A DNA stretch of 56,010 nucleotides from a virus (Duplodnaviria; Caudoviricetes): positions 1 to 56,010 of the IMG/VR virus record IMGVR_UViG_3300045282_000096. The stretch is one strand, 5' to 3'. Made by a program: the position numbers and the translations under genes. Below, in pieces: positions 12,864 through 49,394 of the stretch (its first letter is position 1; each line of letters opens with the position of its first letter). The notes beneath the pieces were generated by a model, which worked only from the letters and a program-made list of their open reading frames with translations, was not told where the DNA came from and did no database searches.

Positions 12864-13592
12864 ATGACTAAAACGATCATAGTCCTCGGAGAGAGAATTG
12901 GAAAGCTCACAGTTATTGAAGAAGCCAAAGCTCGCTACATGAGCGGTGTTAGGTGTCGGTTCTGGCTTTGTGTATGCGAGTGTGGAACCCCCAAAATAGT
13001 CGCACAGGCCAAACTGTCCCGAGCCATCAGATATGACTTTAGAATCTCGTGCGGATGCTGGAAGAATCAGTTGAGTTCCGAAAGGCTCAAGGCATCCAAT
13101 CCGATTTTGAAAAGGACCCACGGACACAGGGCGGGGGAAATGAGAAAACGTAATTGGGCATACTCCAGTTGGCGTCTCGCTAAAAAGAGATGCTATGATA
13201 CCAAACATGAAAAATACTATTACTACGGAGCGCGTGGGGTGTTTATGTGTGATGGATGGAGAGAATCTTTTTCGAAATTCCTTTCCGATATGGGAGAATG
13301 TCCTGCGAATAAATCCATCGACCGAATTAACACGAAGGGTAGCTATACCTGTGGTACATGTGAGCAATGTGTCGCAAACAGTTGGCCGATGAATTGCAAA
13401 TGGTCCACCGCCAAAGAGCAGGCCAGAAATAGAACCAGCAATCGAATTCTTACGGTTCATGGATTTACCGCGTGCCTTTCAGCAATTGCTGAACGTTATG
13501 GCGTTATTGCCGAAACAATTGCAGAGCGTCTTCGACGGGATTGGACCATCGAAGACGCCGTTACAAAGCCTAGATTTGGAAGGGTAGGCTGA
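12864..13592 (+). CDS. HNH-like homing endonuclease, antisense to the structural operon
   Basis: G.RIGKLTVI, WLCVCECG, SCGC, YGARGV.MC..W..SF..F..DMG, SIDRIN..G.Y, NCKWST..EQARN. Confidence 0.85.
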   Translation: MTKTIIVLGERIGKLTVIEEAKARYMSGVRCRFWLCVCECGTPKIVAQAKLSRAIRYDFRISCGCWKNQLSSERLKASNPILKRTHGHRAGEMRKRNWAYSSWRLAKKRCYDTKHEKYYYYGARGVFMCDGWRESFSKFLSDMGECPANKSIDRINTKGSYTCGTCEQCVANSWPMNCKWSTAKEQARNRTSNRILTVHGFTACLSAIAERYGVIAETIAERLRRDWTIEDAVTKPRFGRVG

Positions 13593-15219
13593 CGGTTGCA
13601 CAAGGTCCCGTCACCGTTATCGTTGTGGCCGATGCTACGGCCCAAACGCCTAATTCTGGTAATTGGGCATTGAGTTGAACAACGAGCGCGGCAAGGGTTG
13701 TCGAGCCGCTGATTTGAGAGTTGGCCACCGGACCCCCATCGCACAAAACGCTGAACGCCGGAATCTCATAATCCCCATTGAGCACGTTCTTCGTCGGCGT
13801 GAACGTGGTGGTGATGTTGATCGGAATCGGACTCGTCCCGCTGTGCTCATCCGGGCACTGCGTGTTGGCCGAATTGTAAACCTGAGCAGGATAGCCAGGA
13901 TCGGCATTGCAGGTATTGATTTCAATCACACAGAACGGCTCTGCCTTATGGAAGATCGCCACAAGGAATTCTGTGTAACGCGGCTTGGTAGCCAGTTCAT
14001 GGCTGGACACCCACAGACCTTTGTTGCGGTCGATGTTTTCAATCACGCAACCGTTTACATCGGCTCCGAGATTGTCCATCGCAAAGCGCCATTTGCCGCC
14101 GAAGTTGCGGTTCAGGAACGGCATTTCACTGTTGATTTGCTCGCTCTCCAATGTCTGGAATTCCAATCCCATCGGATGCCAGACGAATGAGACTCGGAAT
14201 TGGGCGTTGTCGAAATCAGGATTGCGCTGGCTCTTGAGTCCTGCCGCGCTGCCCGCGCCCGACGACGGCACATTCTTATACGGTTGAACCACCTGATAAC
14301 GGAACAAACCACCAACAACACCCACGAAGTTGAATCGCAGGCCGTTTACATCGGTGCGAATGGTATAATTTCCCATCTGCCCGGAGAAGCCGTATTTCCA
14401 ATACTTGCTGGCAGCATCCCATTCGGTAAAGCGCCAGTTGCCGGTGACAGACGGCACGCCCCCAACGCCGGTAAATCCACTGAGACGGTCCAGTTCCCAG
14501 GTCGTCTGCGTATCGGTAACAAGCTCCAACATTGGCGGGAATTTGTCAGACCACGGGTTTTTACCGCCGTAACCGACTGACATGAGCGGTTCAACAAGGC
14601 GCTGCAACATCTGCGGCGTCAGTTTGAACACCTGTGCCGGATTGATATTCGTGTCGATGTATTGTTCTTCGTCACCATTGACGATGACCCAATTGAAGAT
14701 GAAGCTTCCAGCGGGATTGGCCGTCGCAAAAAAGCGGTTGGCGATGAACTTGTTGTCGGCATACTGCATCCCGCGTTTGCGCATGTAATTCGACAACACC
14801 CAAACGGTGGTCGGTCGCAGAATGTCCGAGATGATGTAGCTCCATTGTTCCTTGGCCTTTGTGACCGTGAACATATTGTCGAAGCAGAGCAGTTGCGTGC
14901 GCCAGTGCTGTTCCTCAAGGAAGTAAGTCAGCCGCGTGCTGCCGAACCCGATTTCATGGCGATTCTTATCGCACGGCGTCCCAAGACAGTTGCCGGTAGC
15001 AACCTGCGTCCACGTCTTGGTGGTATTTGGAAAGACGCTGTTAAAACGGTCAAGGGTATGTTGGGTGCCAGTGAAAGGATCGAATACCCCCATACTGACG
15101 TGACCGAGCCAGTTAGCGGGATCTTCGGGACGAATGTCCTTGAGGATTTCCTTGTCATAAACCGGCTGTTGATCGGTGAGGAAGCTTGTGAACTGACTGC
15201 ACGAAATTATTCTGGCCAT
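13570..15219 (-). CDS. Major capsid protein
   Basis: About 549 aa (start at MARIISC), downstream of portal and scaffold, with its own promoter, structured leader and terminator. Confidence 0.75.
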   Translation of the reverse strand: MARIISCSQFTSFLTDQQPVYDKEILKDIRPEDPANWLGHVSMGVFDPFTGTQHTLDRFNSVFPNTTKTWTQVATGNCLGTPCDKNRHEIGFGSTRLTYFLEEQHWRTQLLCFDNMFTVTKAKEQWSYIISDILRPTTVWVLSNYMRKRGMQYADNKFIANRFFATANPAGSFIFNWVIVNGDEEQYIDTNINPAQVFKLTPQMLQRLVEPLMSVGYGGKNPWSDKFPPMLELVTDTQTTWELDRLSGFTGVGGVPSVTGNWRFTEWDAASKYWKYGFSGQMGNYTIRTDVNGLRFNFVGVVGGLFRYQVVQPYKNVPSSGAGSAAGLKSQRNPDFDNAQFRVSFVWHPMGLEFQTLESEQINSEMPFLNRNFGGKWRFAMDNLGADVNGCVIENIDRNKGLWVSSHELATKPRYTEFLVAIFHKAEPFCVIEINTCNADPGYPAQVYNSANTQCPDEHSGTSPIPINITTTFTPTKNVLNGDYEIPAFSVLCDGGPVANSQISGSTTLAALVVQLNAQLPELGVWAVASATTITVTGPCATVSLPFQI

Positions 15220-15403
15220 ACTCGCTAAAAGTTTTGCGTTTATTGCTCGCTGCACACCATGTGCGCGATGCTACTTTTAGGAGTGCCTCTCCCTCTTTGA
15301 AGGCTACGCCGTGTCAATAGGCGTCTAACAAGACTGTCCAGCGGCCTACTGGACGACTGCGGGCCAATGATTGAGGACTAATCGACTATTGGAAAGAAGT
15401 CAA
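15220..15403 (-). promoter_or_regulatory. Capsid promoter (TTGACT at 15403) and multi-hairpin 5' leader
   Basis: Hairpins GTCCAGT/GCTGGAC, ACGCC/GGCGT and ACTCCTAAAAGT/ACTTTTAGCGAGT, the last closing immediately before the ATG. Confidence 0.55.
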
Positions 15404-15411
15404 AGGAAATT

Positions 15412-15597
15412 TTATCTTGATTCTATTTCATCTGCGTAAAGCCATGTATTTTTACGGTCACTATTATCCCAATAAGCGATTCTGTATTGCATTCCAACGC
15501 TATCAATTTGAATCATATCGACTCGTCCGGGGCGTTGAATTTCCCTTACAAGAACCTTTTGACCAATCTCAAAATCAATTTTGATATTTTTTTCCAT
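15412..15597 (-). CDS. Small SH3-like beta protein
   Basis: FEIGQKV...YRIAYW...W.YADEI. Confidence 0.6.
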   Translation of the reverse strand: MEKNIKIDFEIGQKVLVREIQRPGRVDMIQIDSVGMQYRIAYWDNSDRKNTWLYADEIESR

Positions 15598-15604
15598 TAA
15601 AAAC

Positions 15605-15747
15605 TGGCAGGGAAGGCAGGAATCGAACCTGCGGTGATTGCGGCGTCCGTTCGGCGGGCCTATCGCATAGGGAATTACCCGTTTCGTTTGCCCCGCCGCG
15701 TCGGAAAACGCTGTCTAACGCTGAGTCCACCATTTCTCTACTTCCCT
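15605..15747 (-). ncRNA. tRNA-like RNA (143 nt) with expanded central domain in place of the anticodon arm
   Basis: Acceptor AGGGAAG/CTTCCCT-G-CCA, D arm GAG..TGG..CTC, T arm GCAGG-TTCGATT-CCTGC. Confidence 0.75.
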
Positions 15748-15769
15748 GAAAATCAAGCCTCTGCGATGG

Positions 15770-15988
15770 TCATGGAGCTAATCCCATTTGATTAGCTGCC
15801 ATTTCAATACACTGACAACAAGCATCTCCACCCATTAAGTGGTGGTGGTGAATGTCGTCAGCCTTAGTCTTAAGTTCGGGGTTAGAGTTGTAAAGGTCAC
15901 GCCACTTTTTATATTCAGCACGCTGCAATTCACGACCCTTAGAACAATCTTCACACTTGCATCCGTCTGGATGAATGACTGCTCTCAC
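15770..15988 (-). CDS. Small Cys/His-rich hypothetical protein
   Basis: HPDGCKCEDC; GTGA-coupled to the scaffold gene. Confidence 0.55.
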   Translation of the reverse strand: MRAVIHPDGCKCEDCSKGRELQRAEYKKWRDLYNSNPELKTKADDIHHHHLMGGDACCQCIEMAANQMGLAP

Positions 15989-17250
15989 GCTTCTCTCCCC
16001 ATCTTATCAATCAATGACATTGGATCTTCCGGTTCTGCCGCCGCCGTGCGTCCGTTGCCATTGCCGTTCGCGGGTTTGCTAGCCTTGAATTGCTCCAGTT
16101 CCTTCTCAAGCTCTTTGATGCGCTTGCCGCGTGTTGAAGCCAGATAAGCCACTCGGTCAAAGCCCATGGCCTTGTTGCGAACAGCGGCCACAGCAATCGC
16201 ATATTCTTCACCCGACATTTGTTGCTCTCCGTCTGCTACCGGAGCGCCGTTCTTTAGCACTCGCTCAAGAAGATGCGAACCTTTTGCGAGCAACTCATTT
16301 CCCTTTGGATCGGAATCGTCGGGTTTGAACAATGCCGGATATTTCTCTACTGCCGCCTTTTGAAACTTGTCCACCATTGAGGTGTATTCCTTGGATTGTT
16401 TCTCAACCTGCTCCCGATTTGTCTTCTCCCACTCAGTGCCCTTCTGCCGATATTCTTCAATGGCAGCATCCGCACGAGATTGAATGTCCCGAATCTTTTC
16501 GCGGTGATGCAGGATGATGGACGCCTTGTTACCAAACAATTCAGTTGCCTTCTCAGCAGCAAGATCATCCTCTGCGATGGACATGATTGAATCAAAATCA
16601 GCGACGGTTCCTTGACGCGCCTGCTGAATTACCGAACCATCTTCTTCGTTCTTGCGCTCAATCACCTTCATGGAAGCCGCACGCGATTGGCCGGTCTTCC
16701 AGCTTTCAACGTAGGGCTTTTCAAAGGTGTCCTTGTAATGCTGAGACTTCGTGAAATTAGTGAACTGCAACGTCTGCTCATAATCAGCAACGCGCTTGTT
16801 ATACTCCTCAATCTTCTTCTCGCGTTCAGCCAACCGTTCTTCGTAAGTCTTTTTCTCAGGCCATTCGGGAGGAGTTTTGAGTTTCTTTTCATAGTCCTCT
16901 TTGGCCTTGAGCCATTCCTTTTGTTCGGCCTTGAGTTTGTGGTAGTGCTTGGCCAACTCACTCGTCTTAAGCTTCGTTGGGTCAATGTCATCGTCAGGCT
17001 TCGGAGGTTCAGCTTTCGCTGGTTCGGCCTTCGGTGCTGACTTCTCAACAGCCTTGTCCTTTGGAATGAACTTGCCGTCAGCACCGCGCACACGGCCATC
17101 TCCAGGTGGTGGTTGCCCTGGTGGAGTTGGCGTGCCTTCTTCTCTGCCAAGCGCGTCTATCGCGCCAAAGGCTTCTTCGTAACCCTTCGGCGGTTCAACG
17201 TCCATTACGGGCGCTGCGGGAGGGGCTTCTACTGCGGTTGCATCAGCCAT
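15985..17250 (-). CDS. Capsid scaffolding protein
   Basis: Charged, helical, Pro-rich N-terminus with RGADGKF; lies between portal and capsid. Confidence 0.7.
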   Translation of the reverse strand: MADATAVEAPPAAPVMDVEPPKGYEEAFGAIDALGREEGTPTPPGQPPPGDGRVRGADGKFIPKDKAVEKSAPKAEPAKAEPPKPDDDIDPTKLKTSELAKHYHKLKAEQKEWLKAKEDYEKKLKTPPEWPEKKTYEERLAEREKKIEEYNKRVADYEQTLQFTNFTKSQHYKDTFEKPYVESWKTGQSRAASMKVIERKNEEDGSVIQQARQGTVADFDSIMSIAEDDLAAEKATELFGNKASIILHHREKIRDIQSRADAAIEEYRQKGTEWEKTNREQVEKQSKEYTSMVDKFQKAAVEKYPALFKPDDSDPKGNELLAKGSHLLERVLKNGAPVADGEQQMSGEEYAIAVAAVRNKAMGFDRVAYLASTRGKRIKELEKELEQFKASKPANGNGNGRTAAAEPEDPMSLIDKMGREA

Positions 17251-23911: not shown

Positions 23912-24585
23912 GATAATGTGTCGCCCACAATGAGTTGTTCTTGATTTGCATTATGGAACCCGCCAACAAGCGAATCACACTGATTGAGTGGCTTCACGTC
24001 ATTGAACGTTGCCACCCATGCGGACCTTCCAGTGTTAAGCACCCACGTCGTCAATCCCTCAGCACCGTGTTCGTAAGGATACCTTTGCGAGTTATCCGTG
24101 ACCCGAAACGGATGTTCGTTGATTAGTTTTGGCGAGCACCAAAAGCCAGTGGTTCTGATGTGAGGCCAAACCCTGACTTTTCCATCTCCCTGATTTCCGC
24201 TGGCCCCATAAAGCCCATCTCCAAGGCTCTGATAGACTTCAACCATTCGCCGCAACCATCCTGGTCCGCGAAAGTAAGTGCCTCCACCAAAGAACACCAT
24301 CAGATCACAGATCACATTCTGAGCCGCGTATTGGTAGCTGCCAATATCCATGCCAACGTTTTCACGAAAGAGAAACTTCGTGGGTTTGATTGGCGCGAAG
24401 ATTTTGTAAGCCTCTCCATTCGGACGACCGCCGTTGCTGACGACAATCATCATGTGATCCATCAGCGGCGGATTGGCCACATACGTGGACACGAAGCGTT
24501 CAGCAAGGCGTGCGTGTTGGGGGCCGAAGATAGGAACGGGATAATTATATATAACTGCGATCTTCATTTTAATTCGACCGCGCAA
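23884..24585 (-). CDS. Putative glycosyltransferase (RgpF/GT2-like)
   Basis: IVVSNG, RENVGMDIGSY, PHIRTTGFW, YEHG. Confidence 0.6.
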   Translation of the reverse strand: MRGRIKMKIAVIYNYPVPIFGPQHARLAERFVSTYVANPPLMDHMMIVVSNGGRPNGEAYKIFAPIKPTKFLFRENVGMDIGSYQYAAQNVICDLMVFFGGGTYFRGPGWLRRMVEVYQSLGDGLYGASGNQGDGKVRVWPHIRTTGFWCSPKLINEHPFRVTDNSQRYPYEHGAEGLTTWVLNTGRSAWVATFNDVKPLNQCDSLVGGFHNANQEQLIVGDTLSCVPYFHCS

Positions 24586-25018
24586 AATCTCCGTGATATT
24601 TCAAAACGGCTTCATTCCGAGCAGTTTTAGCCTCCTCAGGTGTTTTGAATGTTCCAAGATGGATGGTCTTCCCTTCGTGCCCAATATCTGCAACGTATTT
24701 ATTTCGCTTCTTCCAAAACCACACTCCTTTTACACCGAGTTTGTTCCTTTTTGTGACTGCTGTATTCCGAAGATTTTGTTTGTGGGTAACAATTCTCAAA
24801 TTGCATTTTCGGTTATCTAATCGGTTTCCATTGATGTGGTCCGTATCAAAACCATCGGGCGTGTTCATCACCACCCTGTGCATGTAAACAGATTTTCCGT
24901 TCGCGTTTCTATGGGCATATCCCTTGCCGACATAAGTCCAATGATACTGAGCAATTTTCTCAAAATCCTCATCATCAACGATTGCGACGTGACCCTTATT
25001 AAGTTCAATAACTTTCAT
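24569..25018 (-). CDS. HNH endonuclease with AP2 domain
   Basis: AIVDDED, MHR, DHINGNRLDNRKCNLR, GVKGV...HLG.F...EEA. Confidence 0.92.
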   Translation of the reverse strand: MKVIELNKGHVAIVDDEDFEKIAQYHWTYVGKGYAHRNANGKSVYMHRVVMNTPDGFDTDHINGNRLDNRKCNLRIVTHKQNLRNTAVTKRNKLGVKGVWFWKKRNKYVADIGHEGKTIHLGTFKTPEEAKTARNEAVLKYHGDFARSN

Positions 25019-25898: not shown

Positions 25899-27284
25899 TC
25901 ATGCCAGCATTTCCCCTGTCAATTCGTAGAAGGCTCCCGGTCGATGCAGTCTCGTGTTGGGATTTGCGGTCCATTCTTCGACTATCACATTTTTGTGAAG
26001 CCCATGGGCGATTGCCAGCGGCAAGCTTTGGTTTCCAATAAACAGTTTGCAGCCAGCAATTGCTTGAGCCAAATGCAGCGCGTTGTCTGTTTTCCAATAA
26101 GGCACTTTGCAATGTGGCGCTAATCCGCAAAACAGTCCATGCTCTAACTCGGTCCCAACAAACACCATATCATTGTGGTGCTTTTCAATCAGTCTTGGCC
26201 AGTTGAAATCGTGATTCAAATATCTCTGAGTCCGGTTGACCACGATGGGTCTTCCGCCAAACGGAATCGACTTTGGAACTGTCAACCACGGTTCCGTTGG
26301 CATCGGCAGGTTGAACGCATCCATGTGCAGCTTGAGGATTGAATCGTTGTCCTTGGCGCTGCGTTGCTTCCACGGAATGCGGAAGCGGTTAAGGTCGTAA
26401 TCTGTGCTAAAGGGAAAACCATGTGTGTATTGGACCTTCCAAATATATGGCTGCGCTTCGAATAGTGGCCGCAGATTGTCCATAAATTCAGGCGATCCGC
26501 CCGTCCGTGTCCATCGTGAGTCGAGTGGGTGGGGATAACGATTAAACGGCGTCAGGAATAGAACACCTTCGCCAAGAGCCTTGATGACTGGAAGTGCGTA
26601 CACGCAATCCCCCGCGTCCCCAGAATGGCAATAGACTTTGCACGGTTTCTTTTCTCGTGGAATAACCGAGAGCATCGAATGAAACCCGAAAGAATTGCTC
26701 CACTTGTTCGGTATGCCTTGCCATTCCTTCCCGTCATAAGCGCGTCCCTCAAACGACAAGCGACGAGCCAACGGAGCGGGCATGAACTTCATGCCTTGAG
26801 ATTCAAGGTCTTTTCTAAACCTCACCGATATTGCGGCGTCTTCAGCGTGGTCCTCGCCCTCGGGAAGCTTTGAGCAGGCCTCCATCAAACGCTTCGATCT
26901 AATTCCAAAACCGCCATTCCCCACCGTGTCACTTGGCTGGAATGGTGCCCCACCAAAGTCATACCGCAAGAATTCATCAGTCCACGATTCGGCATGAATC
27001 GGGAAACCGTCCCACTGGACAATCAATGCGTGAGATGTGCCCACATACTTATGAAGCTCTCGCATCATAAATTTGCTGTATCCATCAAGCCCTGTGATGC
27101 GTGGAATCTTTACCGCAAACGGTTGGGATAAATCGTGAGTGAGTAATTTAACAGCGGGAAACTCGCATTGCTCCAACGTCCTTTTAATTGCACGGCTCGC
27201 CAGATTCACTTTGTCAGTGCAATCAACCGAAATCAGAGTTGTGTCAAAAATATGAGTCACAAAGACAGGAGTAATTGTCCGCAA
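25899..27284 (-). CDS. Bifunctional glycosyltransferase-like protein (DUF5672 + GT9-like)
   Basis: HALIVQWDG..W..EFL.YD..GAP..VGNGGF.IRSK and HSGDAGD...LP...IAGCKLFIGNQS.P.AIA.GL. Confidence 0.75.
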   Translation of the reverse strand: MRTITPVFVTHIFDTTLISVDCTDKVNLASRAIKRTLEQCEFPAVKLLTHDLSQPFAVKIPRITGLDGYSKFMMRELHKYVGTSHALIVQWDGFPIHAESWTDEFLRYDFGGAPFQPSDTVGNGGFGIRSKRLMEACSKLPEGEDHAEDAAISVRFRKDLESQGMKFMPAPLARRLSFEGRAYDGKEWQGIPNKWSNSFGFHSMLSVIPREKKPCKVYCHSGDAGDCVYALPVIKALGEGVLFLTPFNRYPHPLDSRWTRTGGSPEFMDNLRPLFEAQPYIWKVQYTHGFPFSTDYDLNRFRIPWKQRSAKDNDSILKLHMDAFNLPMPTEPWLTVPKSIPFGGRPIVVNRTQRYLNHDFNWPRLIEKHHNDMVFVGTELEHGLFCGLAPHCKVPYWKTDNALHLAQAIAGCKLFIGNQSLPLAIAHGLHKNVIVEEWTANPNTRLHRPGAFYELTGEMLA

Positions 27285-27781
27285 AATACCAATTCACTCA
27301 GAGATAATTCGCCTTTAGGTTCATTACATTTGGAACAAGCCTTGCAAACATTATCCGTGGTGTGATTTCCGCCTTTTGAGTAAGGAACAATGTGGTCAAC
27401 TTGAAGTTCCTGTGTCGGAAATTGCTTCTGGCAGTAGTAGCAATAAAAAGATGACTCATGCCTCCATTGAGTGATGATTCTGTTAAGTCTTTTGTCTCCA
27501 AATTTCTTTTTGTTGGCTCTAAGGTCATTTCTTTCTTTAGTTCTAGCCTTGTAAAGTTCTGGATTCTTTTTCTTGTATTCCCGTTCCCAATTTACCGAGT
27601 ATCCTGGATTTTTGTCCCGCCACCGTTTCTTTGCGGCCCTTCTTAAACGGATTCTTTCCGACACTGCCTTTGGGCCTGCCGCCAAGTTGTCCATTCTTTC
27701 TAACAGCGGCTCTCTTGGCAGCAGACGTGGAACTTCCACCCTTCCGGCCAATTCTGGACAGATAGGCTGAAATTGTTCCAT
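27257..27781 (-). CDS. HNH endonuclease
   Basis: CYYC...VDHIVP.SKGG.H...N...AC..CN..K; ATG lies 8 nt after a TAATAT -10 box. Confidence 0.8.
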   Translation of the reverse strand: MEQFQPICPELAGRVEVPRLLPREPLLERMDNLAAGPKAVSERIRLRRAAKKRWRDKNPGYSVNWEREYKKKNPELYKARTKERNDLRANKKKFGDKRLNRIITQWRHESSFYCYYCQKQFPTQELQVDHIVPYSKGGNHTTDNVCKACSKCNEPKGELSLSELVFCGQLLLSL

Positions 27782-32166: not shown

Positions 32167-33060
32167 ATGTCCGACTTAGCTGGATGCTGCCCGGTTTGCC
32201 AATCACAGATAGCCCCCTTATCCATACCGGGGCCGCAAGGTCCAGCGGGAAGTAATGGTGCTGCTGGGACTAATGGAACTTCCGCAACAACTATAACCAC
32301 CGCTCAGTTCGGACCGACTCCCGGTGACACGACTACGGCCTTTAGTATTTCAGTGGCAAGCTCCGTCATGTTCGTCGTAGGCACTGACATTATCGTTGGT
32401 CAAGGGCCGGGTGCGGTGCTCGCAAATCCGGGTCCATGGTCGGGCATCATCACAGCGATACCATCTCCGAATACAATCACGGTCAAGAATCTCAGAACAG
32501 TTGACCAAGGATTGACGGTAAGCAGCGGCGCGTTGGTTGCGCCGATTGGGTTTCTGCCAGCAGTGCCGTTGACAATCGCGCAAGGCGGCACCAATGCAAT
32601 TACGAAGGCTGCGGCTCAAATCAGTTTAGCATTGGGGCAAGATTCAGTGGTGTCCAGTGGTGCTGCACTTGCTCAGGCAATCACTGCGGCAAGTCTTCAG
32701 GTTGGAGCAATAGATGTTCAATTGCCAGCGGGTCTTCTTGGAACTGGCGCTTTGCAATTGCGTGGGTTTGTTTCTATAGACATGGCCGCAGTTACTTTCG
32801 CGGCAGCACCAAGAACAATTACTGTCACTATTCGAAATATCACTCAAGCTTTGAACATTGTGAGCGGAGTTCTCCACACACAAAACACAGCAGCAGGAAG
32901 TTTTCCAACTCATTTCTTAGTCATACCACCATTCAAATACACTGCTGGCGTTGCCGGGGACCATCTACAACTTTTCATTTTGGTCGATGTTGCGATCACT
33001 GGAGGCGCGTTGACGGTCGATGCGGGTAGCCTTGAGGCAGTGCCACTTCGGTTGAGTTAA
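32167..33060 (+). CDS. Virion fibre-like protein with short collagen repeat
   Basis: CCPVC N-terminus, GPQGPAGSNGAAGTNG, LTIAQGGT.A motif. Confidence 0.7.
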   Translation: MSDLAGCCPVCQSQIAPLSIPGPQGPAGSNGAAGTNGTSATTITTAQFGPTPGDTTTAFSISVASSVMFVVGTDIIVGQGPGAVLANPGPWSGIITAIPSPNTITVKNLRTVDQGLTVSSGALVAPIGFLPAVPLTIAQGGTNAITKAAAQISLALGQDSVVSSGAALAQAITAASLQVGAIDVQLPAGLLGTGALQLRGFVSIDMAAVTFAAAPRTITVTIRNITQALNIVSGVLHTQNTAAGSFPTHFLVIPPFKYTAGVAGDHLQLFILVDVAITGGALTVDAGSLEAVPLRLS

Positions 33061-33677
33061 TGAGTGCCAGAAAGATAAATCCAAATAGAGATAATCGAAA
33101 AGTCTTTCCGCATTGTTTGATTCCCAAATCTGGAAAATGCGGTGTCTACGGAATTATATGCAATTCTGACGGCAGACTTTACGTAGGCGGTGCTAAAGAT
33201 TTATATGACCGCTATTCCACCCATAAGTATAAGCTGAATAAAAAAGAGCACTGCAATCGGTATCTTCAACAATTGCATAATGAAAATCCCGAGTGTTTGG
33301 AGTTTTTCGTCATTGAGGAAATACGCGACGCTTCAACACTTAGAGAGCGGGAACAATTCTGGATGGATTTCTACCAATCTTACCAGATTGAACATGGCTT
33401 CAATATCAATCCAAATTCCAAATCTCCGTTGGGATTTAAGATGACAGAAGAAGGAAAGGCAAAAATTGGAGCCGCTCATCGAGGCGTGCCAAATGTCAAA
33501 TGCTCTAAGCCCGTAACGCAGTGGTCGTTGGACGGTAAAGAATTGAAAACTTTTCCATCTTCATCCGAGGCAGGCAGGCAATTAGGAATGCCCATATCGG
33601 CAGTCAGTCATTGCCTTCAAGGAAAGTCCAAAATAACACACGGATTCAAATGGACTTATGCCGCCCCCACAATCTAG
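33060..33677 (+). CDS. GIY-YIG homing endonuclease with NUMOD-type C-terminus
   Basis: GVYGI..YVG..R..H..H.N..LQ, REQFW, KPV.QW.LDG...F.S..EA.R.LG...GFKW.Y. Confidence 0.88.
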   Translation: MSARKINPNRDNRKVFPHCLIPKSGKCGVYGIICNSDGRLYVGGAKDLYDRYSTHKYKLNKKEHCNRYLQQLHNENPECLEFFVIEEIRDASTLREREQFWMDFYQSYQIEHGFNINPNSKSPLGFKMTEEGKAKIGAAHRGVPNVKCSKPVTQWSLDGKELKTFPSSSEAGRQLGMPISAVSHCLQGKSKITHGFKWTYAAPTI

Positions 33678-35748: not shown

Positions 35749-36417
35749 TTAAGTTTTTAACATCTGTTTTGCGAGTTTCCAATTAAGCTTACGCGACTCC
35801 AGCTCCTCTTTGGGATATTTTCTAAACCCGTTCTTATCCCTTTTCAAAACAGGAACAAGCCCCCTCCTTCTTCTTGATTCGTAATGCGCTTTGCAATAGC
35901 CACGAATAACCCTTGTTTCACTGCCGCATACTTTGCATTTTCCAAGACCCCTTTCCGGCACTCCTCTGTTTTTTCTCCACTCATCTTGGTAGTGCTTTGG
36001 GCACAATCCCTTGCAAATGTAAAATCCCTGATTCGCCTTAACTCCACATACCTTGCATTCCAATTGAGTTCGGTGGAGAAACATATGAGTACGACGACTA
36101 GTTAAAACTAAATTTTCAATCCGGTTGTCGTTTTTAACTCCGTTTACATGATGCACCACTTCTTCTGGCAATAGGTGTCGTCCAATTTTTTTCTCCATTA
36201 TCAAGCGGTGTTCCGCGACATATCCCCTTCCATCGGAATATGGATGAAGTGAATCTCTAACGTATATGTAGCCACCGTTGAGCCAAATTCCGGTTTTGAA
36301 ACATGGATGGTTTTTGCCTCGATTCCATTTATGGTAACAATCCCTGCATCTAATAGCTCGCCTTTGACGAATAGATTTGCCGCAGTCGGTGCATTTAGAG
36401 TAGTGTTTATATGACAT
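35749..36417 (-). CDS. HNH endonuclease, antisense within the tail operon
   Basis: YVAEHRLIME..IGR.L...EVVHH.NG.K.DNR.ENL; own promoter TTGCAC-N16-TAGCAT-N8-ATG. Confidence 0.9.
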   Translation of the reverse strand: MSYKHYSKCTDCGKSIRQRRAIRCRDCYHKWNRGKNHPCFKTGIWLNGGYIYVRDSLHPYSDGRGYVAEHRLIMEKKIGRHLLPEEVVHHVNGVKNDNRIENLVLTSRRTHMFLHRTQLECKVCGVKANQGFYICKGLCPKHYQDEWRKNRGVPERGLGKCKVCGSETRVIRGYCKAHYESRRRRGLVPVLKRDKNGFRKYPKEELESRKLNWKLAKQMLKT

Positions 36418-45119: not shown

Positions 45120-45219
45120 GGGCGAGTAGCTTAATTGGTAGAGCGCAGCGGTACTTAATGCGGGAGAAATCCGCAAGATTCCGGTGCGGTTACGGGTTCG
45201 AATCCCGCCTCGTCCACCA
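45120..45219 (+). ncRNA. tRNA-like RNA (100 nt) with extended hairpin instead of an anticodon loop
   Basis: GGGCGAG/CTCGTCC-A-CCA, TAGCTTAATTGGTAGAGC, CGGG-TTCGAAT-CCCG. Confidence 0.8.
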
Positions 45220-48274: not shown

Positions 48275-48777
48275 CTTGGGTTCGAGTTACCAAACAGTTC
48301 CCTTGTGGGATTTGCAAGCGTCCCGACTGGTGCACTTACTGCCCTGACTCCAAATCGTGGTGCTGCATGAGGGTCCATTCTGCGCGCCCGGCAAAAAATG
48401 GGGGATTTTGGCATAGTTTGGGAGAAAAACCCACGTTTATACCTCGCCCCGCGCCCGCCGCGCCTGAAATCGACGCTGGTGCCCTCATGCAACGCTTTCG
48501 GTCGAACACCCGGCCTGAACACCTCGACCGACTATCGAGAAACTTGGGTGTCTCGACCGACTCTTTAACCCGCACGGGTTGCGCGTGGGCGGGTTGCCAT
48601 AACGCTTTTGCGTTTCCCATGTTCAACAGTGCTGGTCATGTGGTTGGAATACGCCTTCGAAATGATCGTGGTGAAAAATGGGCCGTGCGTGGTGGACATG
48701 AGGGGCTTTTCATTCCCGACTATTTGGTTTCACGATTGACAAACGGTCACTTAAAATGGGAGAGTTGTTCAGGCTAA
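48271..48777 (+). CDS. DnaG-type primase, N-terminal half (zinc-binding and N-terminal catalytic part)
   Basis: CGIC..PDWC...C.R, FPM....G.VVGIRLR...G.K...G...GLF. Confidence 0.75.
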   Translation: MTWVRVTKQFPCGICKRPDWCTYCPDSKSWCCMRVHSARPAKNGGFWHSLGEKPTFIPRPAPAAPEIDAGALMQRFRSNTRPEHLDRLSRNLGVSTDSLTRTGCAWAGCHNAFAFPMFNSAGHVVGIRLRNDRGEKWAVRGGHEGLFIPDYLVSRLTNGHLKWESCSG

Positions 48778-48862
48778 GAATGAGTGCTAGAAGTTTCAGA
48801 ACTGTCAACGGCGCAATCTTCACCGATTGCTCATTCTTAGCCGAATCCGTTGGCAGTTTTGA
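48772..48862 (+). ncRNA. Crossing-helix RNA leader of the endonuclease
   Basis: 14-bp P1 48772-85/48829-42 and 16-bp P2 48796-811/48847-62, with G-U pairs. Confidence 0.65.
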
Positions 48863-48884
48863 GGTTTCAATTCAAAGGAATCCA

Positions 48885-49394
48885 ATGTCAAAATTTATTG
48901 ACCTTAGCGGTCAAACTTTTGATTGTCTCAAGGTAATTAAAAGAGGTTACAACACCCGAAAGGGAGCGGCTCAGTTTTGGTGTTTGTGCTCGTGCGGAAT
49001 TGGGGAATTAAAAACTTCTCGTGGTTTGTTAAAAAAAGATTCGAAGCGCTGCTTGTTCTGTAATGGTAAAGAGCACTCCATCAGAACAAAAACAAGGAGC
49101 ACTCGTCATGGGCATTGCACCCACACCAATCAATCCCGTGAATATAAATCGTGGGCGAGCATGAAAAAACGGTGCTTGAATCCCAACGATTCCAAATTTG
49201 ATGACTATGGTGGGAGGGGAATAACTATCTGCGAGAGTTGGTTGAAGTTTGAGAACTTTTTTGCCGACATGGGAAATAGGCCAGCAGGTCTTACGTTGGA
49301 TAGAATAGATAACGATGGAAATTACGAACCCGGAAACTGCAAGTGGAGCACATGGAGCGAGCAACAGAAAAATAAAAGAGCCGCGAAGTTATGA
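48885..49394 (+). CDS. HNH-like homing endonuclease inserted into the primase
   Basis: AAGGA RBS; MSKFIDLSGQTF, W.C.C.CG, YGGRGI.IC, LDRIDNDGNYEPGNCKW. Confidence 0.88.
   Translation: MSKFIDLSGQTFDCLKVIKRGYNTRKGAAQFWCLCSCGIGELKTSRGLLKKDSKRCLFCNGKEHSIRTKTRSTRHGHCTHTNQSREYKSWASMKKRCLNPNDSKFDDYGGRGITICESWLKFENFFADMGNRPAGLTLDRIDNDGNYEPGNCKWSTWSEQQKNKRAAKL

Follow-up and report, generated by a model that had tools for sequence, protein, structure and literature searches.

A tRNA-shaped RNA gene with a structured domain in place of the anticodon loop, located upstream of the probable capsid gene of a soil phage

We analyzed the complete virus record IMGVR_UViG_3300045282_000096 (Caudoviricetes), a stretch of 56,010 bp with direct terminal repeats and a G+C content of approximately 49.5%, which is referred to below as the window, and we describe in it a 143-nt gene for a transfer RNA (tRNA)-shaped RNA whose anticodon loop is replaced by a folded domain. 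Near-identical DNA to the window was found in soil metagenomes. The RNA gene lies on the minus strand in a series of genes that runs in the order 421-aa coiled-coil-rich open reading frame (ORF), 72-aa ORF (orf72), 22-nt spacer, RNA, 8-nt spacer, 61-aa ORF (orf61), and 561-aa ORF. The 421-aa ORF is, as a guess, the scaffold gene. The 561-aa product is probably the major capsid protein, an assignment that stands at the level of a lead: ESM Atlas clusters carrying phage capsid families were retrieved for it with feature scores of 0.93-0.95 and TM scores of 0.45-0.47 by query, and nothing was found for it in Pfam and PHROGs. For orf61, three homologs with 76-90% identity were identified. Two of the 12 large ORFs of the window matched a PHROGs family, neither of which adjoins the RNA gene, and a blastn search of positions 15300-16000 against a phage GenBank collection gave no match. 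The coordinates of the RNA gene, its parts, its neighbors and the other tRNA-shaped genes discussed below are collected in Table 1.

The RNA retains the body of a tRNA. Its acceptor stem consists of seven base pairs, all of them Watson-Crick, and is followed by G73 and an encoded CCA; U8 is present, the D arm bears GG, and the T arm carries a loop of the form UUCRANY. The stem at the anticodon position has the usual five base pairs, but it closes 69 nt, and a 7-nt loop with U33 and a purine at position 37 is absent. In a focused Rfam scan, the tRNA family RF00005 matched the RNA with 34.3 bits (E = 1.5e-5; gathering cut-off, 29 bits), all model positions from 1 to 71 being aligned and 76 nt of the RNA standing where the model has 11. 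The RNA was unlisted in the whole-window Rfam run at gathering cut-offs and in the search of its own genome, where it was presumably lost to filters, and ARAGORN called nothing at 15605-15747, either without introns or with introns of 0-300 nt allowed. These results confirm an earlier note on this DNA, which had described a tRNA mimic at this position with a 7-bp acceptor, GCCA, a D arm with GG, a T arm and no 7-nt anticodon loop, and which had proposed the ARAGORN search; to this description we add the strand. The same note had held that a match to a known Rfam family would speak against its view. Formally such a match exists, but it covers the tRNA body only, and so it confirms the mimic. 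The unconstrained minimum free energy (MFE) of the RNA is -53.5 kcal/mol (z = -1.9; equally good in 6 of 200 shuffles), and the corresponding fold breaks the D and T arms. Folding energy alone is not significant; it is the covariance-model score and the conservation described below, not folding energy, that mark the element as more than a product of chance.

At the anticodon-stem position, a 5-bp helix (P1) closes a 69-nt three-way junction that is formed with a hairpin (P2) and a long arm (P3). The P3 arm runs through an A-rich internal loop or irregular helix up to the apical hairpin GGG-UAAUU-CCC (P4), and we refer to the whole domain as the cargo. The structure was tested on a model-guided alignment of three copies of the element, namely that of the window and those of two related genomes, G031 and G010. 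Standard pairs occupied 99.1% of the cells of this alignment, and 11 of the 38 pairs were changed on both sides, compared with 0-2 two-sided changes and 43-51% of cells paired in slid controls. Two-sided changes affected five of the seven pairs of the acceptor stem, in which every cell is still paired in the three copies, two of the five pairs of P1, three of the 14 pairs of P3 and its inner helix (plus two changed on one side), and one of the five pairs of the T stem. The D stem (0 of 3) and P2 (0 of 4) are invariant. Since it shows no covariation, P2 is the least certain helix; its loop has 6 nt in the window copy and approximately 15 nt in G010. The cargo core is near-invariant between the window and the diverged G010 copy, amid acceptor, P1 and P3 stems that covary. 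The two stems GCGUU/GACGC and GGCGGG/CCCGCC that the earlier note had pointed out do exist, and compensatory changes in the homologs support both.

Table 1. Coordinates of the tRNA-shaped RNA gene, its structural parts, its neighbors, and other tRNA-shaped genes of the window and of related genomes. Numbers in parentheses are positions in the RNA; positions refer to the window unless a locus is named.
Feature	Position	Strand	Basis or remark
Whole tRNA-shaped RNA gene, 143 nt including encoded CCA	15605..15747	-	Rfam tRNA 34.3 bits; own model R1 185.4 bits
Acceptor stem, 5' strand (1-7)	15741..15747	-	Pairs with 15609-15615
Acceptor stem, 3' strand (133-139), discriminator G (140), encoded CCA (141-143)	15605..15615	-	Sequence; covariation
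D arm: 3-bp stem, 10-nt loop with GG	15723..15738	-	Aligned to D arm of tRNA model; stem invariant in three homologs
T arm: 5-bp stem, loop UUCGAUU	15616..15632	-	tRNA model; one compensatory pair
Variable region, 10 nt (106-115), CAAUC conserved	15633..15642	-	Alignment of copies
P1, 5' strand (27-31), replaces anticodon stem	15717..15721	-	Pairs with 15643-15647; 2 of 5 pairs compensatory in G010
P1, 3' strand (101-105)	15643..15647	-	All cells paired across copies
P2 hairpin (37-50): 4-bp stem, 6-nt loop	15698..15711	-	Stem sequence invariant; no covariation
P3, 5' strand (51-56)	15692..15697	-	Pairs with 15653-15658; three pairs G-C to C-G in G010
P3, 3' strand (90-95)	15653..15658	-	Covariation
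Cargo core (58-88): A-rich irregular helix and hairpin P4 (68-78, loop UAAUU)	15660..15690	-	Near-invariant
Junction strand J3/1 (96-100), GAAC conserved	15648..15652	-	Alignment of copies
orf72, upstream 72-aa ORF	15770..15988	-	Ends 22 nt ahead of RNA
orf61, downstream 61-aa ORF, AT-rich	15412..15597	-	ATG 8 nt past CCA
Probable major capsid protein gene, 561 aa (context)	13570..15255	-	ESM Atlas lead; 30 relatives
Second tRNA-shaped gene	45120-45219	+	Rfam tRNA 42.3 bits; G3:U70, A73, encoded CCA
tmRNA-end-like RNA, genome G026	L045 1487-1611	-	Homologous to the G015 RNA; the two ~125-131 nt
tmRNA-end-like RNA, genome G015	L055 1487-1617	-	Homologous to the G026 RNA
Class-II tRNA-like gene with long variable arm, A73 and CCA, genome G013	L050 1487-1616	-	Rfam tRNA 34.2 bits, focused scan only

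Other structures were considered and set aside. A rod-like fold was rejected in favor of the junction, its outer helix having no covarying pairs and two of five pairs broken in G010. A pairing between the P2 loop and J3/1 (UCCG/CGGA in the window, CCUG/CAGG in G010) was judged insignificant, being a 4-nt match in a loop of approximately 15 nt. Likenesses to the hammerhead, the kink-turn, loop E, guanidine-II and anti-Shine-Dalgarno sequences were dropped on inspection by eye, the motifs being either unmet or unconserved in G010.

The covariance model R1 was built from the window and G031 copies with the proposed structure. It scored 185.4 bits on the window copy, 185.8 bits on the G031 copy and 98.3 bits on the G010 copy, and it placed copies in three of the 32 related genomes and in none of the others. 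As a background, eight T4 tRNAs gave 13.5-30.1 bits on the same model, and the remaining unusual tRNA-shaped genes scored between 11.5 and 33 bits. Relatives of the 561-aa protein were found in 30 phage contigs (46-64% identity); R1 had no hits in the capsid loci of these 30, and in none of them does a T-arm motif lie upstream of the capsid gene. When RF00005 was run over the whole contigs of the 30 relatives, it gave one sub-threshold match and no canonical tRNA at cut-off. This lossy screen is no evidence of absence, because insert-bearing genes escaped it: a T-loop pattern applied afterwards to the same contigs picked up several tRNA-shaped genes with long inserts, including the G010 homolog. 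A core-motif scan of IMG/VR added the genome G031. Of the 11 loci that a relaxed core pattern retrieved from IMG/VR, nine were chance matches and the other two the known contigs, and the two loci retrieved by the core pattern from representative prokaryote genomes were both chance matches (8.4 and 4.9 bits, local only). A D-arm pattern scan of IMG/VR returned the two known contigs only, the exact 22-mer of the T arm and acceptor had no hits in IMG/VR, and no tRNA-like gene was present upstream of orf61 homologs at three IMG/VR and seven metagenome loci (32-65% identity). Since these further pattern scans gave no more real copies, the known family comprises three genomes.

G031 is the closest full genome and is syntenic with the window, with protein identities of 66% for the capsid and 52% for the scaffold. 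The window and G031 copies of the element are identical at 138 of 143 positions (96.5%), and four of the five differences make up two compensatory pairs of the acceptor stem. At the DNA level, the element is 97.8% identical over 138 nt, whereas the capsid genes are 68% and the scaffold genes 65% identical, and no similarity is detectable in the immediate flanks of the element. The G031 copy occupies the same site, flanked by the capsid gene and, upstream, by an unrelated gene, and keeps the G-CCA end. Directly past this CCA we observed, on the minus strand of the G031 locus L060, a minihelix-like sequence of approximately 70 nt with a 6-bp acceptor-like stem and a T arm (loop UUCAAAU) and with no D or anticodon arm; approximately 390 nt of non-coding-looking sequence separate it from the capsid gene. 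The G010 copy is diverged, has a length of 156 nt, and ends with A and without CCA. It is located elsewhere, separated by a 217-nt gap from a divergent HNH gene, the neighboring ORF with the HNH motif, and approximately 10 nt ahead of the first ORF of an operon.

A fourth source of the element is a contig of another soil study (run X2), which is identical to the window over 229 nt. Over the element and the beginning of orf61 this contig has 0 differences from the window in the 229 nt, whereas the next gene differs at 8 of 89 nt and the orf72 region is exchanged for 254 other bases. Within the source run itself, a minor variant exchanges 15404-15984 for 435 other bases. The scaffold-capsid gap of the 30 relatives, judged from tblastn ends, ranges from approximately 156 to approximately 2590 nt. 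By these comparisons the RNA gene is discrete and accessory and occupies a variable hot spot, and the element is either strongly constrained or recently exchanged.

We compared the element with the known classes of gene that it might represent. It is not coding, because the copies have lengths of 143 and 156 nt, the indels between them are not multiples of three, and the G010 copy has stops in all frames; a frame of four to eight codons with a stop is present in all copies, as expected from the hairpin sequence. Nor, on its predicted structure, can the RNA read codons. A single-excision test was applied to each of the three copies, and none of the eight ways of leaving 7 nt inside P1 gives U33 and a purine at position 37. 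A group I intron was rejected: the insert has 69 nt, and no Rfam intron family was found in a scan of a 451-nt region, as the earlier note had supposed on grounds of size. Group I introns are typically longer than 200 nt. A protein-spliced (bulge-helix-bulge) intron was rejected as well, as no legal loop arises by excision and no splicing-enzyme family occurs among the 87 ORFs. The cargo alone, in its 69 nt, had no Rfam matches at E values up to 10. Transfer-messenger RNA (tmRNA) was rejected on the pair G3-C70 in all three copies, in line with the earlier remark that the tmRNA G3-U70 pair is lacking, on the full D arm, and on the Rfam tmRNA score, a 17-nt T-arm fragment of 9.9 bits (cut-off, 47). 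The YrlA/Y RNAs were rejected since there is no Rfam match and no TROVE/Ro60 family in the 87 ORFs, the topology differs, and the Ro-binding motif was found unmatched by reading. The acceptor identity differs between the copies, with A1-U72 and G73 in one form and U1-A72 and A73 in the other. Judged from its sequence, the element fails a defining test of every known family except that of the tRNA body.

Further tRNA-shaped genes occur in the window and in its relatives. The second such gene of the window follows a bidirectional terminator-like hairpin, and a spacer of 19 nt separates it from the ORF that opens the plus-strand block. It has 37 nt where the tRNA model has 13 positions, and its anticodon stem shows a G.G mismatch and then an 8x6 internal loop that leads to a 5-bp hairpin. 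ARAGORN calls this gene only when introns are allowed, and the resulting Ser(ACT) is implausible. The second gene is absent at the syntenic site in G031, and its exact 3' end was found at three loci, none of them homologous to its insert. As a separate observation, a 72-nt gene in a tRNA cluster of an unrelated 84-kb viral contig (L034 355-426, plus strand) shares its acceptor stem and T arm, including G3:U70, and has no recognizable anticodon arm.

The relatives G026 and G015 carry mutually homologous RNAs with G3:U70, A73 and a D-like stem, which match both ends of the Rfam tmRNA model weakly (27.2 and 14 bits; cut-off, 47) and have 61-84 nt between the ends, as against more than 300 in tmRNA. 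The exact GGG-UAAUU-CCC hairpin of the window's cargo recurs in the G026 RNA, and in the seven genomes searched this P4 hairpin or its U-to-C variant is confined to tRNA-shaped genes. We also observed in the G026 and G015 RNAs a frame ending at a stop in the second hairpin loop. The placement of a stop in the P4 loop resembles that of the tmRNA stop codon, and short frames that end in hairpin-loop stops are probably a by-product of the hairpin sequence. A pattern scan for tmRNA-end-like RNAs had at least 120 matches; among the matches listed, 1 of 120 passed a crude filter on acceptor and T arm, and this was the G015 copy. The class-II tRNA-like gene of G013 has 56 nt, partly GU-rich or of low complexity, in place of nine anticodon-loop positions, and its reading by ARAGORN as an intron-containing Asn(GTT) is not credible. 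A gene of G030 is called by ARAGORN with a four-base anticodon. The clade seems to favor tRNA bodies without anticodon loops. Another relative provided an observation of its own: a tRNA-like sequence with 26.9 bits (sub-threshold) and an oversized anticodon loop (L021 2631-2702, minus strand) lies in its scaffold-capsid gap, on the strand opposite to the capsid gene.

In the remainder of the window, the few known families recognized among the proteins are RecT, a helicase, Dam, a radical-SAM enzyme and a PAPS-reductase-like protein, and the family scan of the ORFs additionally revealed three HNH endonucleases and one GIY-YIG endonuclease. These four homing-endonuclease-like genes are free-standing and are located at 24569-25018 (minus strand), 27257-27781 (minus), 33060-33677 (plus) and 35749-36417 (minus); their domains are HNH_3+AP2, HNH, GIY-YIG with NUMOD, and HNH_3. 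A 212-aa ORF at 48756-49394 (plus strand) belongs to no Pfam family and has scattered partial copies, with four tblastn hits in G031 and two in G010, which suggests a mobile or repeated module.

The element is most likely a functional RNA gene derived from a tRNA. That it might instead be a decaying tRNA pseudogene with a chance insertion is highly improbable: phage tRNA genes do come and go, most relatives lack the element, and its folding energy is no better than that of shuffles at the usual threshold, but a sequence in decay accounts neither for the compensatory changes in the acceptor stem, P1, P3 and T stem nor for an identity of 96.5% between genomes whose flanking genes are 65-68% identical, and the elbow and processing determinants are all intact. 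The argument against decay made in the earlier note is thereby strengthened. We consider it just as hard to believe that the insert is the intron of a tRNA gene and that its splicing yields a normal tRNA. Beyond the good tRNA body, this idea could appeal to the calls made by ARAGORN when introns are allowed, which are Ile(GAT) with a 62-nt intron for the G010 copy and Ser(ACT) with a 24-nt intron for the second element of the window. However, the Ile(GAT) call needs a stem that the window sequence cannot form, the same program with introns of 0-300 nt calls neither the window nor the G031 copy, and 0 of 8 excisions are legal in any copy. The insert is moreover far under group I size, no Rfam intron or ribozyme matches it at E values up to 10, and neither a splicing endonuclease nor an RNA ligase family occurs among the 87 ORFs. 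An aminoacylated non-decoding RNA, a small tmRNA-like molecule or amino-acid donor that would be charged at its CCA and would present in its cargo a very short frame ending in the P4 loop, is improbable too. It would fit the topology, since in tmRNA the loop of the anticodon-side helix of a tRNA body is likewise replaced; the window and G031 copies encode K-R-N-G-stop (RNA positions 59-73, with the stop in the P4 loop) and the G010 copy K-R-N-G-S-S-P-M-stop-stop; and the G026 and G015 RNAs, with their G3:U70 pair, weakly match the tmRNA-model ends, the G026 RNA sharing the P4 hairpin. Yet G3-C70 implies no alanine identity, the acceptor identity is unconserved between the copies, the Rfam tmRNA models yield the 9.9-bit T-arm fragment only, no pseudoknots were predicted (although this was no rigorous pseudoknot test), and the short frames are a trivial consequence of the GGG-UAA hairpin. 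The 69-nt cargo is a compact junction and, to our knowledge, far smaller than any tmRNA message domain.

An unlikely but less far-fetched alternative is a role in cis, in which the element would serve as punctuation or as a stabilizer: RNase P and 3' processing would cut the late polycistronic transcript just ahead of orf61 and the capsid gene, or the 3' end of the upstream mRNA would be protected, and the RNA, once excised, would itself be functionless. The setting is suggestive, as the element stands in the sense orientation, 22 nt past orf72 and 8 nt before the orf61 ATG, with no terminator-like or convincing promoter-like site between the two ORFs; in G031, too, an upstream gene and the capsid gene flank the copy, and in G010 the copy precedes the opening ORF of an operon by approximately 10 nt. 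On the other hand, none of the 30 capsid relatives carries the element there, and their gaps vary from approximately 156 to 2590 nt, so that capsid expression does not need the element, whose position in any case differs between genomes. A cleavage signal would also leave unexplained a near-invariant cargo core amid covarying stems and the recurrence of the same hairpin in a different tRNA-shaped gene, that of G026. The suggestion of the earlier note that the element marks an mRNA processing site ahead of the capsid gene is therefore weakened, both by its absence there in 30 of 30 relatives and its place in an operon leader in one homolog, and by a cargo more conserved than a mere cleavage signal needs. 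Among the functions that the note had put forward, a tRNA scaffold for a stable cargo RNA and a decoy appear to fit best.

The explanation that we prefer, with a probability of about one half, is that of a trans-acting, non-decoding RNA in which a tRNA scaffold carries a cargo and which is made by the tRNA-processing enzymes of the host. The RNA has kept the determinants of bacterial tRNA maturation, namely G73-CCA, the elbow of the D and T arms, and a 7-bp acceptor stem that stacks on the T arm. It would be transcribed within the late minus-strand operon, cut at its 5' end by RNase P and trimmed at its 3' end back to the encoded CCA, and it would then accumulate as a stable RNA of approximately 143 nt, in the manner of engineered "tRNA scaffold" chimeras. 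Excision and a stable 143-nt product are to be expected because the determinants for RNase P and the 3' end are intact and because engineered scaffolds and YrlA provide precedents; we infer expression, processing, stability and the existence of a partner in this way from sequence. The cargo would act in trans, most likely by binding a host or phage protein. Because the sequence of the core is conserved, we would place the function in it, a binding site being the simplest case, and the conserved A-rich internal loop and the P4 hairpin would be the parts that contact the partner. The role may be an accessory one, of the counter-defense or host-takeover kind, as the accessory, hot-spot distribution would suggest.

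Several points weigh against this explanation. No family of RNA-binding or RNA-processing proteins was recognized among the 87 ORFs scanned, and no neighboring gene is common to all three copies. The type of bacterial RNase P and the handling of CCA in the host are assumed. The set used for covariation comprises three sequences, of which two are nearly the same; fitting the alignment to the model biases the pair counts in its favor; and P2 shows no covariation in the three copies. The three-way-junction fold has an energy of -45.0 kcal/mol, compared with -50.4 kcal/mol for the rod with the tRNA arms enforced and -53.5 kcal/mol for the MFE fold. Finally, recent lateral transfer, instead of purifying selection, could account for the near-identity with G031.

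More tentatively, the trans-acting RNA may be one case of a natural "tRNA scaffold" system, in which a clade of soil phages uses host tRNA maturation to make stable non-decoding RNAs with interchangeable cargo in place of the anticodon loop. The RNA of the window would then be an accessory counter-defense or host-takeover RNA, whose A-rich loop and GGG-UAAUU-CCC hairpin capture a host factor and whose tRNA body either gives stability or recruits a tRNA-binding enzyme. If this is true, the hairpin shared with the G3:U70 RNA of a related phage would mean one partner addressed from different tRNA bodies. Few tRNA-shaped non-decoding RNAs are known, namely tmRNA, YrlA, viral tRNA-like ends and the unexplained T4 RNAs C and D, and each one explained so far showed a new use of the tRNA fold. 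Should the cargo have a protein target, it would represent a phage RNA effector of a new class and also a stable RNA module that is ready for use. Such RNAs may be under-counted in viral metagenomes, because this gene and the majority of those like it in related phages escaped standard tRNA finders and the Rfam screens.

No earlier description of the element was found in the literature (open-access texts), and by its predicted features the family is a small, previously undescribed one of tRNA-derived, non-decoding RNA. It can be compared with several known systems. Like tmRNA (SsrA), which is matured by RNase P and has a CCA end, it combines a tRNA-shaped acceptor/T module with an anticodon-side helix that closes a non-tRNA domain; unlike tmRNA, it has G3-C70, a full D arm and a 69-nt junction in place of approximately 300 nt with pseudoknots and a tag frame. 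YrlA, the partner of Ro60/Rsr, is likewise modular, with a tRNA-like domain joined to a protein-binding helix, and is present in some phages. One YrlA with a 7-bp acceptor stem is described as undergoing RNase P cleavage and gaining CCA (PMC4201824). The ends of YrlA lie in the Ro-binding stem, whereas those of the phage RNA lie in the acceptor stem, and the phage cargo has AACGAAAC where the published YrlA motif is GNCGAAN0-1G. Three families of tRNA-mimicking RNAs from bacteria in a 2026 preprint differ from the phage RNA in connectivity, as they are portrayed there.

Among phage RNAs, T4 RNA C and RNA D (species 1 and 2) are reported as small stable RNAs of approximately 120-140 nt that are encoded beside tRNA genes and have unexplained roles (PMC3014915, PMC9697503). 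The 3' 95 nt of RNA C (rnaC, L091 2909-3047) score 19.3 bits on R1, inside the range of 13.5-30.1 bits of T4 tRNAs, and at most 17.5 bits on Rfam, to tRNA-Sec. Unlike the family described here, whose members score 98-186 bits, RNA C has no cargo homology, and its acceptor-like pairing is internal and not at the 5' end. RNA D gave no match. Phage tRNAs, including the anticodon-loop variants that evade anticodon nucleases (as presented in PMC10264068), resemble the element in being accessory, sporadic and co-oriented with operons, but ordinary phage tRNAs keep the 7-nt loop and decode, whereas this RNA has no such loop. The design of the phage RNA is most directly matched by the engineered "tRNA scaffold" of Ponchon and Dardel, in which a structured insert, itself closed by a stem, takes the place of the anticodon stem-loop, the acceptor, T and D arms being retained. 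By the account in PMC3753655, such scaffolds are processed and stable in E. coli, and more than 50 constructs worked. The engineered scaffolds are artificial, whereas the phage element is natural and has a conserved cargo, and it would thus represent a compact natural version of a design that RNA engineering uses to stabilize aptamers.

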